37,437 bases of DNA from an uncultured Candidatus Bathyarchaeia archaeon (GCA_964653295.1 CAZZFH010000001.1:1-37437), one strand, 5' to 3'. Counted from the first letter of the stretch, positions 5,234 to 27,981 are shown. Numbers and translations are program-made. The notes: generated by a model not told the origin, from the sequence alone.

Positions 5234-5737
5234 ATGCGTTGCGAGGTATGCGGACGAGAAATACATGGACCACCATACTACAGAGTTATCGAGGGCGGCA
5301 GACTTACGGTCTGCTCACAATGCTCAAAGTTCAGCGACCAAGAATGGGACCCCAAAAGACCCCAAGCAAGAAAGAGTCCAACACGCAGGAGATCAGCACA
5401 ACCACAGCCCAGACGGCGAAGCGACATCGAGACAGCAGAATCCCTAGAACTCGTAGAAGGTTATGGTATGATCATCAAGAAGGCGAGACAGAAAAAAGGA
5501 ATGTCAGTCGAGGATTTCGCTAAGAAGATAAGCGAGAAAGAGTCTGTGGTTAAGAAGCTTGAGAAAGAGAATATGAACCCACCCTTGAATCTGGTTAGGA
5601 AGGTCCAGCGAGAACTCAGCATCAATATTCTTGAGGAAGCTGAGACAGGAAGCGGAGCGGTCCTTACAAGACCAATGGGACCGAGAACGCTTGGAGACCT
5701 AATAAAAATCAAGGACTCCACCAAGAAAGAGGAATAA
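5234..5737 (+). CDS. mbf1: Archaeal multiprotein-bridging factor 1 (MBF1): N-terminal Zn-ribbon plus C-terminal HTH
   Basis: CEVCG...CSQC zinc ribbon, a basic linker, then a cro/C1-type HTH (IKKARQKKGMSVEDFAKKISEKESVVKKLE). Confidence 0.85.
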   Translation: MRCEVCGREIHGPPYYRVIEGGRLTVCSQCSKFSDQEWDPKRPQARKSPTRRRSAQPQPRRRSDIETAESLELVEGYGMIIKKARQKKGMSVEDFAKKISEKESVVKKLEKENMNPPLNLVRKVQRELSINILEEAETGSGAVLTRPMGPRTLGDLIKIKDSTKKEE

Positions 5738-5739
5738 TC

Positions 5740-6324
5740 ATACCATCTATCATTCTTTTAACTGGTACTCCTGGGACCGGCAAGACCACCGTAGCCAAGA
5801 TTTTATCCACTGAACTGGATGCGAGACACATTGAGTTATCAGTTTACGCAATGGAAAATGGGTTAATTCTGGAGAATGACGCTGAGAGGGATACACAGAT
5901 AGTTGATATGGATGCCCTTAGGGAATCACTTTTAGAGCTTACAAGCCACACAGAACAGACCATCATAGTCGATGGGCATTACAGCCATGAATTATTTGAT
6001 GTAGAACTGGTGAACCTCGTCATAGTTCTCAGGAAAGCCCCATGGGAGCTATATGATGTACTCCAGAACAGGCTGTACAGCTACGAGAAGGTCTGGGAAA
6101 ACCTAGAAGCAGAGATAATGGGAGTAATCTCAGATGAAGCACAAGAATATCCAAGGGAGAAACTACACGAGATAGATACAACGGGTAAATCTGCTGTAGA
6201 GGCTGCTGAGGATATCTTAGGGGTTATCAGAGGCGAAAAGCCTGCAAGCTTTGGTCCCATCGACTGGGTTACATACCCAGAGACCCTCAGAGTATTGGTG
6301 AACAGGACATGTACTTTATCATAA
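5740..6324 (+). CDS. Fap7/AK6-like adenylate kinase (ribosome-biogenesis NTPase); start assigned to non-canonical ATA 5740
   Basis: The ORF track starts at ATG 5851, but the same frame is open from 5644. It encodes (I)PSIILLTGTPGTGKTTVAKILSTELDARHIELSVYA upstream, which is the Walker A P-loop of this family. There is no ATG/GTG/TTG in frame between 5644 and 5850. ATA 5740 lies 2 nt after the mbf1 stop and about 7 nt after AGAGGA. Confidence 0.75.
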   Translation: MPSIILLTGTPGTGKTTVAKILSTELDARHIELSVYAMENGLILENDAERDTQIVDMDALRESLLELTSHTEQTIIVDGHYSHELFDVELVNLVIVLRKAPWELYDVLQNRLYSYEKVWENLEAEIMGVISDEAQEYPREKLHEIDTTGKSAVEAAEDILGVIRGEKPASFGPIDWVTYPETLRVLVNRTCTLS

Positions 6325-14608: not shown

Positions 14609-14687
14609 TGGTGCTCCCGCCGGGATTCGAACCCGGGTTCTCCAACTCGAAAGGCTGGAATGCTTGTCCGGACTACACCACGGGAGC
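14609..14687 (-). tRNA. tRNA-Glu (anticodon UUC), genomically encoded CCA
   Basis: The reverse complement GCTCCCGTGGTGTAGTCCGGACAAGCATTCCAGCCTTTCGAGTTGGAGAACCCGGGTTCGAATCCCGGCGGGAGCACCA folds as a cloverleaf. Acceptor stem is GCTCCCG/CGGGAGC, anticodon stem CCAGC/GTTGG, anticodon loop CTTTCGA, and T-arm CCGGG-TTCGAAT-CCCGG. Confidence 0.93.
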
Positions 14688-14779: not shown

Positions 14780-14858
14780 GGGCCTGTAGCTCAGTTTGGC
14801 CTAGAGCACCTGGCTCATAACCAGGGGGTCATGGGTTCAAATCCCTTCAGGCCCACCA
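14780..14858 (+). tRNA. tRNA with CAU anticodon. It is Met by anticodon, but the body resembles archaeal tRNA-Ile, so it may be tRNA-Ile2 (agmatidine-modified, AUA-decoding). CCA is genomically encoded.
   Basis: GGGCCTGTAGCTCAGTTTGGCCTAGAGCACCTGGCTCATAACCAGGGGGTCATGGGTTCAAATCCCTTCAGGCCCACCA. Acceptor stem is GGGCCTG/CAGGCCC, anticodon stem CTGGC/ACCAG region with loop CTCATAA. It is not initiator-like, since there is no AGCGGG 5' end. Confidence 0.9.
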
Positions 14859-15758: not shown

Positions 15759-16610
15759 GTGAATATCATGTTTGACGAAGAAAAACCAGATGTCCTCGAT
15801 GAAAAAGAGGAAAAAGAAGAACCCGAGGAAGAAGTAGAGTCCGAAGAGGTTCAGGTTGAAGAGAAAGCTGCTCCAGAGGAGGAGCCAGAAGTAGAGGAAG
15901 AACCCGAAGAGGTTCACTACGAGAACGCTGTCAACAAGGGAGACTTCATCAAGGTCGAGATGACTGGGAGCTCTGTCGAGACCGGGGAAGTATTTGAGAC
16001 CACCAGCGAAGAGGTTGCTCAAGAGTCCGGTTTATGGGAAGAGAACAGGACATATGAGCCTAGGTTGGTCATCGTTGGAGACGGCTTTGTGCTACGGGGA
16101 CTTGACGAGCGCCTACCGGGTACACCATTCGATGAGGAAATTGAGATAGAGATCCCTCCAGAGGAGGCTTTTGGTGAGAGAAACCCAGCAGAGGTCCAGA
16201 TGGTGCCTTTCCGAGTTCTTAGGAGCAAAGGGATCAACCCATATGTTGGGGCTGAGCTGGAGATCGATGGAAGGCAAGCTATAGTTAGAAGCGTTGGAGC
16301 TGGAAGGGTTCAGTTAGATTATAATCATCCTTTGGCGGGAAGGCAGATCGTCTACAAGCTAAAAGTCATAGAGCATATGACCGACGAGAAGGACAAGATG
16401 AGAGCACTCATAGGTAGAAGATTCTTGGGAATCGATACAGCGGAGTTCGCCCTCAAGAAGACCAAGAAGAAGCTCAGGATCGGTATCCCTGACCAGATAT
16501 TCTTTGGTGAGAACATCCAGATAGCCAAACGTGGCGTAGCGCTCGACCTTCTCAGATACTTTGAGGACATCGATGAAGTCGAATACTACGAGTCCATCAA
16601 ACGATCCTAA
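15759..16610 (+). CDS. Long-type FKBP peptidyl-prolyl isomerase (SlyD/FKBP26-like) with a highly acidic N-terminal extension
   Basis: FKBP core blocks (GDFIKVEMTG...GEVFETT, LVIVGDGFVLRGLDERL, DYNHPLAGRQIVYKLKV) follow about 50 residues of E/P/K-rich sequence. The start is GTG 15759 or ATG 15768. Confidence 0.8.
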   Translation: MNIMFDEEKPDVLDEKEEKEEPEEEVESEEVQVEEKAAPEEEPEVEEEPEEVHYENAVNKGDFIKVEMTGSSVETGEVFETTSEEVAQESGLWEENRTYEPRLVIVGDGFVLRGLDERLPGTPFDEEIEIEIPPEEAFGERNPAEVQMVPFRVLRSKGINPYVGAELEIDGRQAIVRSVGAGRVQLDYNHPLAGRQIVYKLKVIEHMTDEKDKMRALIGRRFLGIDTAEFALKKTKKKLRIGIPDQIFFGENIQIAKRGVALDLLRYFEDIDEVEYYESIKRS

Positions 16611-16632
16611 TTTTTCATAGGGGGAATCCCCA

Positions 16633-17829
16633 GTAAAGACTGAGGCAGCGATAATCGGAGCCGGTCCGGCGGGATTACTGGCTGCTGATGTTATTTCTAA
16701 GCATGGTTTTAGTGTTGAGGTTTTTGAGGAGCATGGACAGGTAGGCTACCCTGTTCACTGCGCTGGTATGGTTAGTGTTGAGGGGTTCAGCAGGCTGGGC
16801 ATCGAGATAAAACCTGTTTTCCACCAGAACACGGTTTTCGGGGGAAGGATTTTCTCGAGTGATGGCAGCTGTATTACTATCAGGGACAGGAAACCTAGAG
16901 CCTATATCATTGATAGGGGGCGGTTTGATGCTTATCTCGCTGAGGTGGCTGAGGGTAATGGTGTAAACATCAATACAGCGAGACGGGTTGATCAAGTTAT
17001 CTTCAAGGATGGCGTTGCTACGGGATTGAGGGTCGGGGGCTCAGAGATTGCGTCAAAGATTACTGTTGACGCTGAGGGGGTTTTGGGCAGGGTTCTGTCT
17101 AGATCGGGTGTTTCTACTTGTCAAGTGGGGGTATTGAACGGGTTTAATGTGGAGTTTGATGTGGAAGATATTGAATCTGATATGGTTGAGGTGTGGTTCA
17201 ACCAAGAGACCTCCAAGGACTTTTTCACATGGGTGATCCCGATCAAAGAAAATCGGGTAAGATGTGGCTTAGCTACCTCAAGCAGTGATGGGGTAATGGC
17301 GCTCAAACACTTCATCGAGAAGCGCTTCAATAAAGAACCCTCATCAACAATCCACGGCGGACTCGTATACACAGGGGGACCAGTAAATAAAACCGCTTAT
17401 CCGGGTTTATTGTTGGCAGGGGATGTAGCAGGGCAGGTTAAACCCACCACTGGTGGTGGGGTGGTGATTGGGGGGCTTTGCGCCCACTTAGCGGGGGAGT
17501 TTGGTGCAAAGGCGTTAGGAGAAGATGTTGGTGTGCTTGGTGAGTATGAGAGAGAGTGGCGGAGAAGATATGGCTCTGAGCTTCAGACCATGCTCATCAT
17601 GCGAAGACTGGTTAATGGTTTAAGTGATGACCAGCTGAATAAAGCAGTACACGCCTTTATTGAGGAGGGATTGGACGAGAAATTCACCCACTTGGTTGAA
17701 GAAGGAGACATGGACATGCAGGCAGGTATAATCAAAAGAGCGTTAACTGACCCAGCGATACTAGCTTCTCTCGCACGCTCATTAGGGAGACTCGTGGTCT
17801 CAGAGTTCTTCTCGGCTTTTGGGCTCTAA
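16633..17829 (+). CDS. Geranylgeranyl reductase-family flavoprotein (archaeal lipid saturation); no canonical start codon
   Basis: The ORF track starts at ATG 16768. The same frame is open from 16621 and encodes ...PVKTEAAIIGAGPAGLLAADVISKHGFSVEVFEEHGQVGYPVHCAG, the FAD-binding GxGxxG beta-alpha-beta, upstream of that ATG. There is no ATG/GTG/TTG in frame between 16621 and 16767. Candidate starts are GTA 16633 (after AGGGGGA) and ATA 16651 (5 nt after GAGG). Confidence 0.75.
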   Translation, partial: VKTEAAIIGAGPAGLLAADVISKHGFSVEVFEEHGQVGYPVHCAGMVSVEGFSRLGIEIKPVFHQNTVFGGRIFSSDGSCITIRDRKPRAYIIDRGRFDAYLAEVAEGNGVNINTARRVDQVIFKDGVATGLRVGGSEIASKITVDAEGVLGRVLSRSGVSTCQVGVLNGFNVEFDVEDIESDMVEVWFNQETSKDFFTWVIPIKENRVRCGLATSSSDGVMALKHFIEKRFNKEPSSTIHGGLVYTGGPVNKTAYPGLLLAGDVAGQVKPTTGGGVVIGGLCAHLAGEFGAKALGEDVGVLGEYEREWRRRYGSELQTMLIMRRLVNGLSDDQLNKAVHAFIEEGLDEKFTHLVEEGDMDMQAGIIKRALTDPAILASLARSLGRLVVSEFFSAFGL

Positions 17830-26540: not shown

Positions 26541-27895
26541 CTATGAGAAATTAGATGAGAGACTAGATATTTTCTCAAGTTTCTCCAAGTTGTCAACCTG
26601 CGTGATTATCCTTGAGACCTTATCGCTTGGGAGGGTCATGGATGCGAACGCGGTGAACTTTTCCTTGATGAACTCCAGTGGAATGGGTTGCTTGTCTTCC
26701 TCAAAAAGGTGATAACGTCTACCATCGCGGGTGAATATCTCAAGCCTTGTCCCTATCTTCGTGGGGAAGACCTCATCGATGACTGGATCAATATAAACCT
26801 CGGCTTTCTGCCCAAGCTCAACCACCCGGGGATCAGTGTAACAGTCAAAGAACTCCTTCATGAAAACCTGTCCCTCAACAAGGGCTATGGCAACTGCTAC
26901 TGCAGGGTGATTCTGGGCGTGGAGTGGGGTCTCGGCTACCTTGAGCTGGTTCTCAGCTGTGATGTGGTTCAACCCTATCCTGATCTTTTCTATGTCATCG
27001 ATCTCGATCCCATTCTCTTCCTGTAAGTCCAGCGCCATCTTGATGGGGGGACATAGCTCGTGGCAGCAAGCATAGGGCTTGAACTTGCATTTGAGAATCT
27101 TATAATCCGTGCCCAAGCCCTCGGTTAAACGGTTCAAGTCGTAGCCTTCAGCGTGAGACGCCAATAACCCATACTTTCCCTCGAAAACCGTACAAGGACC
27201 AGTATAGCCCTCACGAGCCAAGAGGGCGGCTAGGACCCCATTCATGGCAGCCTTCCCAGCGTGCAACCGCTTACTCATATCACCTGTGGTCAGCCATTCC
27301 TCTAAACCTGCTGCCTGAGTCCCAGCCAATCCAAAGGCGTTTACCAATTCATCCTCGTTTAACCCAAGCAACTTACCAGCAGCAGCAACTGCACCAATAG
27401 TGCCTACTACGCCTGTTGCGTGGAAGCCCCTGTTCCTGAGCCCGGGATAGACAGCGCTATCGACCCTACAGCTCACCTCATAACCGGCAACCAGAGCCAC
27501 AATAAGGTCTCTACCAGTTACCTGCTCTGCCTCTGCTACTGCTAAAGCAGCGGGTATGATGCATGCTCCCGGGTGTGCCCAGCTGGGGCGTGCCCTGAGT
27601 CATCTGCATCTATTCCATGAGCCATTGTTCCGTTTGCTAGGGCAGCCATTATCATGGGGTATTTTGTTGTTTCTCCGAGTACAGTGGATTGGGGTTCTCC
27701 CTTCATCTGCCGTACAATGTTGATGACCATCTGGCTCCACGGTAATTCGTGGGCGCCTAGGATGTTTCCAAGTGAATCTAGGAGATGCATCTTGGTTTTT
27801 ATTACTACTTCTGGGGCTAGGTCGTTGTACTTGAGTTCTGAAACATATTTGGCGAAAATCCGTGAGTATTCTTCCATATAGACACCGTGCTTCAT
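26541..27895 (-). pseudogene. MmgE/PrpD-family dehydratase gene interrupted by a single frameshift
   Basis: ORFs 27542-27895 and 26541-27500 are the N- and C-terminal parts of one PrpD-fold protein. The upstream frame ends ...AHGIDADDSGHAPAGHTREH...*. The adjacent frame reads ...SWAHPGACIIPAALAVAEAEQVTGRDLIVALVAGYEV, the conserved D.DD...HPG..IIPAALA block. The switch must lie between 27578 and 27599, around a G4/C4 run at 27585-27588. Confidence 0.75.
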
Positions 27896-27981
27896 TAGAG
27901 GGCTCGGAAAATATATCTTTTATTTGAAAAGAAAAGGATATGTCATAACTTTAGATTTGTGCAACTTTTTTCTTAAAAATT

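Follow-up and report, generated by a model that had tools for sequence, protein, structure and literature searches.

A GGR gene without a canonical start codon

The window analysed here is a stretch of 37,437 nucleotides (nt) from an uncultured Candidatus Bathyarchaeia archaeon (GCA_964653295.1, CAZZFH010000001.1:1-37437). It includes a gene for a flavoprotein of the geranylgeranyl reductase (GGR) family, the reading frame of which (16621..17829, + strand) offers no canonical start codon ahead of the segment for flavin adenine dinucleotide (FAD) binding. The gene is the distal cistron of a pair that is conserved across Bathyarchaeia. The upstream member, encoding an FKBP-type peptidyl-prolyl isomerase (15759..16610, +), ends with a TAA (16608-16610) in a frame other than that of GGR. 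The GGR frame is closed upstream by a TAG triplet (16618..16620, +), which is an ordinary stop here (it ends 11 of the 33 gene models in the window) and overlaps a Shine-Dalgarno (SD)-like element, AGGGGGA (16619..16625, +); 5' of this TAG the frame is riddled with stops. Translation of the interval from 16621 to 16767 yields GESPVKTEAAIIGAGPAGLLAADVISKHGFSVEVFEEHGQVGYPVHCAG, with not a single ATG, GTG or TTG codon. The first canonical start of the frame is an ATG at 16768..16770 (+), and the complete FAD-binding beta-alpha-beta unit is encoded upstream of it. The Pfam families FAD_binding_3 and NAD_binding_8 match this open reading frame (ORF, taken from stop to stop) from residues 6-11 onwards. 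This arrangement had been noted in a preliminary description of the sequence, which located the TAG at 16618-16620, the ATG at 16768 and two candidate initiators, GTA 16633 and ATA 16651, all at coordinates that proved exact; translation and Pfam matches also agree with its statement that the whole FAD unit precedes any canonical in-frame start. By chance, 49 consecutive codons would lack a canonical start with an estimated probability of roughly 8% (1 ORF in 12) if some 5% of codons are assumed to be of the start type. Such a length is thus not rare in itself; what gives the observation its weight is that an essential, conserved domain sits inside the startless run.

The full coding sequence (CDS) is placed at 16633..17829 (+), comprising 398 codons and a TAA stop, with GTA (16633..16635, +) as the proposed initiation codon. 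The assignment draws on the start column of orthologous genes, on the TIGR02032 family and on a structural model. Upstream of 16768 the protein is predicted to contain the peptide (M)KTEAAIIGAGPAGLLAADVISK; the dinucleotide-binding GxGxxG motif of the FAD domain (GAGPAG; 16657..16674, +) occupies residues 9-14 and the first canonical ATG corresponds to residue 46. With the N-terminal extension the protein scores 172.7 bits against TIGR02032 and passes the cutoff of 158.8, whereas the product started at ATG 16768 scores 128.5 and falls below it. The AlphaFold model of the protein started at 16633 has a predicted local distance difference test (pLDDT) value of 88 overall and 91 over the first ten residues, with strand beta1 at residues 5-8, a helix at 12-23 and beta2 at 28-32. 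The best Foldseek matches of this model are 3oz2 (template modelling [TM] score 0.81), 4opl (0.83) and 3atq (0.78), with E-values of 1e-28 to 1e-31, and the Protein Data Bank GGR structures 3oz2 and 3atq align with it starting at residue 2-5. The 353-amino-acid (aa) product of the gene-caller start at 16768 lacks beta1-alphaA-beta2; model, Pfam and TIGR02032 scores all bear out the earlier contention that an enzyme beginning there would lose its FAD-binding end.

At the level of the subfamily, its sequence marks the enzyme as an ordinary GGR. It shares the fold of the archaeal GGRs from Thermoplasma acidophilum (3oz2) and Sulfolobus acidocaldarius (3atq/4opl; TM 0.78-0.83) and, like them, carries an N-terminal GxGxxG FAD site, in addition to passing the TIGR02032 cutoff; its identity to these solved enzymes is only 20-22% and, unlike them, it is encoded with a non-canonical start. 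The equivalog models for digeranylgeranylglycerophospholipid reductases are missed by far (NF041080, 97.7 vs 580; NF041160, 69.4 vs 780; NF041385, 25.8 vs 700), and the substrate, a membrane lipid or some other prenyl compound, is therefore not established.

The start column in related loci

Thirty GGR-bearing loci were fetched as DNA from ENA, JGI and Logan contigs and from GTDB species representatives; the close ones are all labelled Bathyarchaeia or Bathyarchaeota. Across these 30 loci the N-terminus reads M/L-K-T-E-A-A-[IV]-[IV]-G-A-G-P-A-G. Aligning the orthologues, a check that had been proposed beforehand, puts the start of the MKTEAA[IV][IV]GAGPAG segment exactly on GTA 16633, which occupies the very position of the orthologous start column. 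Among the 30 loci this column holds ATG or TTG in 22 and ATA in seven (L001, L027, L028, L030, L031, L004 and L113), GTA being found in the window only. In none of the eight sequences with ATA or GTA does a canonical start occur between the stop upstream and the start column. Bathyarchaeota orthologues at 66-71% identity are full length and begin with MKTEAA[VI]IGAGPAG, and the orthologues whose MKTEAA[VI][IV]GAGPAG sequence starts at the GTA column span 54-72% identity. By contrast, the closest relatives (79-85% identical, plus database entries P0032 and P0042) have been called at differing internal codons past the GxGxxG motif. The gene call for the window itself, P0001, is the 353-aa product from ATG 16768, and the FAD motif is missing from all nine of the nearest database entries inspected at their N-termini, in at least one instance owing to a cut contig. 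The second candidate initiator, ATA 16651..16653 (+), lies 5 nt after a GAGG; the corresponding column is ATA, GTA, GTG, GTC or ATC in relatives, and this codon was judged the less likely of the two.

One relative differs at this end: the GGR call on the L118 contig (P0019) begins with MGEPIIKTEAA and has Ile at the homologous start position. Here a canonical start seems to have arisen from the codon that corresponds to the upstream TAG, and this protein may represent an alternative evolutionary escape from an ATA start. Separately, distant GGR homologues (34-35% identity) occur on two JGI metagenome contigs (L055:1936-2010 and L058:3923-4000), likewise behind an FKBP-like gene and a strong SD sequence, AGGTGGG. 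They too have no ATG, GTG or TTG between the upstream stop and GxGxxG, and no obvious near-cognate codon at the expected position.

Upstream codons evolve as coding sequence

Substitution patterns were compared among the eight sequences with ATA or GTA at the start column. For codons 2-45 (44 codons), the ratio of nonsynonymous to synonymous substitution rates (dN/dS) is 0.06-0.31, as against 0.09-0.20 for the remaining ~350 codons; dS amounts to 0.2-0.9 within the window's subclade and is saturated in comparisons with L004 and L113. Across all loci, the K-T-E-A-A codons that follow 16633 vary at third positions while the amino acids are conserved. The codons upstream of the first ATG are thus, by their pattern of substitution, under purifying selection like the rest of the gene, and the coding-type variation of K-T-E-A-A argues against a start at ATA 16651. 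No frameshift or stop interrupts the 398 codons.

Evolution of the start codon

In a neighbour-joining tree (200 bootstraps) the window groups with L027 and L028 (95% bootstrap) inside a clade with 100% support, the other five members of which all have ATA at the start column. From this nesting it follows that a single A>G transition turned ATA into GTA. Another clade (99%) comprises L004 (ATA), L113 (ATA) and L033 (ATG), with L033 as sister to L113 (99%); its mixed composition implies at least two interchanges of ATG and ATA. In the clade of the window, the start mutated from ATG to ATA, ATA was then kept through a long divergence, and the lineage of the window underwent the further A>G change that gave GTA.

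Initiation signals

The 34 nt preceding the start are conserved and consist of the FKBP stop, a T-rich spacer and the sequence (T)AGGGG(G)-N4-7-CCCC, followed by the start codon. In the window the AGGGGGA element lies 7 nt upstream of the start codon, with CCCC at 16628-16631 after it; the SD-like element recurs in all loci. The length of the G-run goes with the nature of the start: the element has five G in all eight ATA/GTA sequences, as opposed to four, or three in one case (L114), in the ten canonical-start sequences compared. The latter include L033, the ATG-bearing sister of L113, which has four. The AGGGGGA-N7-start spacing resembles the GAGGA-N6-start spacing seen elsewhere in the window, namely at the genes for Lsm (TTG) and a 93-aa protein, hyp93 (ATG), and at ATA 5740 of a Fap7-like kinase gene (see below). 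Most other genes in the window show no SD sequence. A TATA-like box occurs at roughly -30 to -23 in a small number of genes (TGT, 8358; response regulator, 15246; GNAT, 20724; PUA, 5178), which suggests leaderless mRNAs for these genes. In archaea of the TACK superphylum (Thaumarchaeota, Aigarchaeota, Crenarchaeota and Korarchaeota), most mRNAs are leaderless and SD sequences are used at distal cistrons (PMC11698992). The pattern in the window matches this picture, and we therefore infer SD-directed de novo initiation for GGR. Termination-reinitiation is an unlikely source of translation here, since coupling in Haloferax volcanii and Escherichia coli is reportedly almost abolished at a gap of ~20 nt (PMC10666635), and the stop of FKBP lies 22 nt before the GGR start. 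An own promoter giving a leaderless GGR mRNA was considered and set aside: the T-rich stretch lies ~20 nt, not ~27 nt, before 16633 and makes weak evidence for a promoter.

According to the proposed mechanism, the putative G-rich SD element would set the small ribosomal subunit with its P site on codon 16633, where the initiator Met-tRNA would then begin on a near-cognate codon. GUA, like the AUA of the relatives, would thus have to be read by the initiator tRNA. Output would probably be low, and the one-base-longer SD element may partly offset this.

The GGGG(G)-N4-7-CCCC sequence directly 5' of the GGR start (16620-16631 in the window) is kept in 17 related loci, Bathyarchaeia-wide. A hairpin hiding the SD, with GGGG and CCCC paired across the loop, was rejected as its purpose: the stem is invariant and lacks covariation, RNAalifold predicted nothing, and the z-score of the minimum free energy was 0.05, the sequence folding no better than its shuffled versions.

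Weighing of the proposed start and its alternatives

GGR is a real gene with a near-cognate start, and it is systematically truncated in public gene calls. That its CDS begins at 16633 or at an adjacent codon can be held with considerable confidence. As to the nature of the start, the gene is probably an intact one whose CDS runs from GTA 16633 by SD-led near-cognate initiation, and the balance tips slightly towards GUA itself being the working initiator. Start column, selection, family model and structure all favour a non-canonical initiator upstream of 16768 with GTA 16633 as its first candidate, which is what the preliminary description had put forward. Several points weigh against this reading. 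The GTA allele occurs in one contig only, and the databases searched hold no second assembly of the species (nearest relative 85% identical). The same contig has at least one 1-nt deletion in a G-run, within a PrpD-family gene, so that either the assembly is imperfect or real lesions are present. GTA differs from ATG at positions 1 and 3, one position more than a near-cognate codon in the one-position sense, whereas the ATA of the relatives falls within that definition; opposite the CAU anticodon, GUA accordingly has two mismatches. Initiation at AUA in E. coli reaches 1-2% of the AUG level, and that at codons beyond the near-cognate set 0.1-1% (10.1101/063800). Furthermore, three of eight all-Ile columns in the alignment are equally invariant, so that ATA in 7/7 lineages goes only weakly beyond the background of conserved Ile codons; the persistence of ATA in seven lineages is compatible with constraint and is not strong evidence alone. 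Finally, a search with Aragorn of 120 sequences (119 loci and the window) yielded only a syntenic tRNA(CAU) and no initiator tRNA with an altered anticodon. This tRNA has a G1:C72 pair and no G29-31:C39-41 run, thus lacking the three G:C pairs of an initiator. By these features it is an elongator Met tRNA or an Ile2 tRNA, not the initiator.

Some of these points could also be accommodated if the G at 16633 resulted from faulty assembly or base calling, or represented a minor variant in the population, and the genome really had ATA, in which case the start would still be non-canonical in the way usual for the clade. ATA in 7/7 sister lineages, GTA in a single contig and the 1-nt deletion in the G-run of PrpD in that contig are what such an error would lead one to expect. 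Consensus substitution errors are, however, far rarer than homopolymer indels, A>G transitions are common as real mutations and the remaining region is clean coding sequence, for which reasons an error seems unlikely. It is likewise improbable that the GTA allele is a hypomorph or a null in a gene heading to loss or covered by a paralogue. The two mismatches of GUA to the CAU anticodon and the apparently broken state of another gene in the window, PrpD, fit with such decay, but the 398 codons are free of frameshifts and stops, dN/dS shows no rise in pairwise comparisons with the nearest relatives (0.12-0.21), and the strengthened SD is intact. Were the ancestral start disabled by GTA, translation might proceed from ATA 16651, giving a protein that begins M-I-G-A-G-P-A-G. 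The clade tolerates ATA as a start, the window has ATA at that codon, and the GAGG at 16642-16645 precedes it by 5 nt. Against this, the column is free to be ATA, GTA, GTG, GTC or ATC, the five preceding codons (K-T-E-A-A) vary synonymously and are thus translated in relatives, and most of beta1 (residues 5-8) would be lost, with one native beta1 residue left; solved GGRs carry 5-6 residues ahead of the equivalent point. ATA 16651, which had been listed as a candidate alongside GTA, is consequently the weaker of the two, and we regard its use as rather improbable.

Explanations that invoke a canonical start fare worse still. There is an in-frame ATG at 16573 (and a TTG at 16561) within the 3' end of FKBP in the window, and some Bathyarchaeota have been discussed as users of pyrrolysine (Pyl), so that, in the window only, read-through of TAG 16618 could in principle produce a protein with ~20 extra N-terminal residues. 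But in L027, L030, L004 and L113 a further stop precedes the TAG by two codons, TAG ends a third of the window's gene models (11/33), and no Pyl genes were seen in the window; read-through is very improbable. Nor would a 1-nt indel restore a canonical start or fuse the frame to FKBP, since no ATG, GTG or TTG exists in any frame from the FKBP stop to 16650, and relatives with other spacer lengths keep the same architecture. The check for such an indel, suggested at the outset, thus gave no indel, and no read-through either, that would provide a canonical start holding across relatives. Lastly, the annotated Met 16768 might be the correct start and the upstream GxGxxG a decaying remnant, as implied by the gene finder's own call (P0001). 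This is extremely unlikely: the 44 codons upstream are under strong purifying selection, the product would lose beta1-alphaA-beta2 and with it the FAD-binding motif, the truncated form falls below the family cutoff, and the calls are arbitrary, being made at differing internal codons in relatives.

Should GUA indeed initiate, this would be explained most simply by the lineage's acceptance of A at the third position. Taken further, the idea would be that initiation in this Bathyarchaeia lineage tolerates A at the third codon position, NUA forming a second series of starts in which AUA relates to AUG as GUA does to GUG. Such a generalization is speculative and, on present evidence, doubtful. The tolerance might stem from the modification state of C34 in the initiator tRNA, from a changed anticodon, or from less stringent proofreading by the archaeal initiation factor (aIF) aIF1 at SD-led internal cistrons. 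Third-position tolerance would explain how a lineage that kept AUA could reach GUA without loss of the gene. If true, the NUA series would constitute a class of start codons outside every standard table, and many N-termini of Bathyarchaeia would be mis-called.

A second gene with a non-canonical start

The preliminary description had counted GGR as the fourth gene in the window with this property. One further case was confirmed, making two genes rather than four. The second is a gene for a Fap7/adenylate-kinase-like P-loop kinase (AAA_18; 5734..6324, +), whose P-loop (GTPGTGKT, 5764-5790) precedes the first ATG, at 5851. After ...GAGGAATAA of the MBF1-like gene that precedes it, the frame reads GGA ATA ATC ATA CCA. 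Two codons are candidates for the start: ATA 5734, sharing bases with the TAA upstream (ATAA), and ATA 5740, situated 6 nt after GAGGA. These ATA codons are kept in L116 and L117 (85% identity by local BLASTP) and in L118 and L119 (64%). Full-length distant homologues begin with MITIPQVFVITGTPGTGKTT, and among the clusters listed at 60% identity or above none is full length (137-189 aa, as against ~195). On sequence grounds, the kinase gene makes a solid second case of a non-canonical start.

The 33 gene models of the window start with ATG (20), TTG (6), GTG (5), ATA (1) and GTA (1), and stop with TAA (21), TAG (11) and TGA (1). These counts rule out a clade-wide reassignment of start codons or a recoding of TAG. 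The other alignable genes in the window match canonical starts in relatives. In a clustering of ORFs over 33 loci, GGR was the only one, among the clusters recognised as real genes, to lack a canonical start.

Relation to known systems

ATA, ATT, ATC and CTG figure as rare starts in translation table 11, and in E. coli infC and pcnB start with AUU; to our knowledge GUA is not among the start codons listed in that table. The cases of the infC/pcnB type share with GGR, as its initiation is proposed here, the direction by an SD sequence, the restriction to a specific gene, a conserved codon and a low expected efficiency, their start codon being one base away from AUG. Unlike those, AUA is conserved clade-wide in Bathyarchaeia and at two housekeeping genes, and the archaeal host uses aIF1, aIF1A and aIF2 and not IF3. 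In mitochondria AUA serves for initiation and is decoded as Met by a methionine tRNA with a modified C34 (5-formylcytidine, f5C). Initiation there involves acceptance of a third-position A opposite C34 of the methionine tRNA, as it would at an AUA start of GGR. Unlike in mitochondria, the internal ATA codons of GGR align with Ile or Val in orthologues, and the elongation code is therefore standard. The two genes also resemble the termination-reinitiation pairs described by Huber et al. (PMC6728339, PMC10666635) in that GGR and the Fap7-like gene, both of them distal cistrons, follow closely on an ORF upstream. The overlap of ATA 5734 with TAA (ATAA) is reminiscent of the ATGA overlaps of coupled pairs, whereas the GGR start, unlike that of such pairs, is 22 nt past the FKBP stop.

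No earlier description of AUA/ATA starts in archaea or Bathyarchaeota was found in the literature searched. Comparison of sequences suggests that what is new here is an archaeal AUA start conserved within a clade and present in two housekeeping genes, together with an SD element that co-varies and a later change to GUA. The comparative evidence is for AUA maintained as a working start, with a strengthened SD, in an archaeon that has eukaryote-like initiation factors; if confirmed, the clade would offer a natural system in which to study start-codon stringency in archaea. In practical terms, gene finders that admit only ATG, GTG and TTG cut this enzyme at arbitrary internal codons. This affects metabolic and lipid-biosynthesis inference for Bathyarchaeia, a very abundant sediment group, as well as family assignments that depend on hidden Markov model cutoffs.

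Other features of the window

The PrpD/MmgE-family gene (26541-27950, - strand) has its N-terminus out of frame as a result of the 1-nt deletion in a G-run near 27585 (TCAGG-GCACGC), seen on comparison with L004, L007 and L008, which splits it into two frames. Either the gene is a pseudogene or a homopolymer was misassembled, and the cause differs from the start-codon problem of GGR and the Fap7-like gene. The syntenic tRNA(CAU) gene (14780-14858, +) forms a divergent pair with a gene for tRNA-Glu(UUC) (14609-14687, -), and this pair is found at the same place in ~20 Bathyarchaeia loci.

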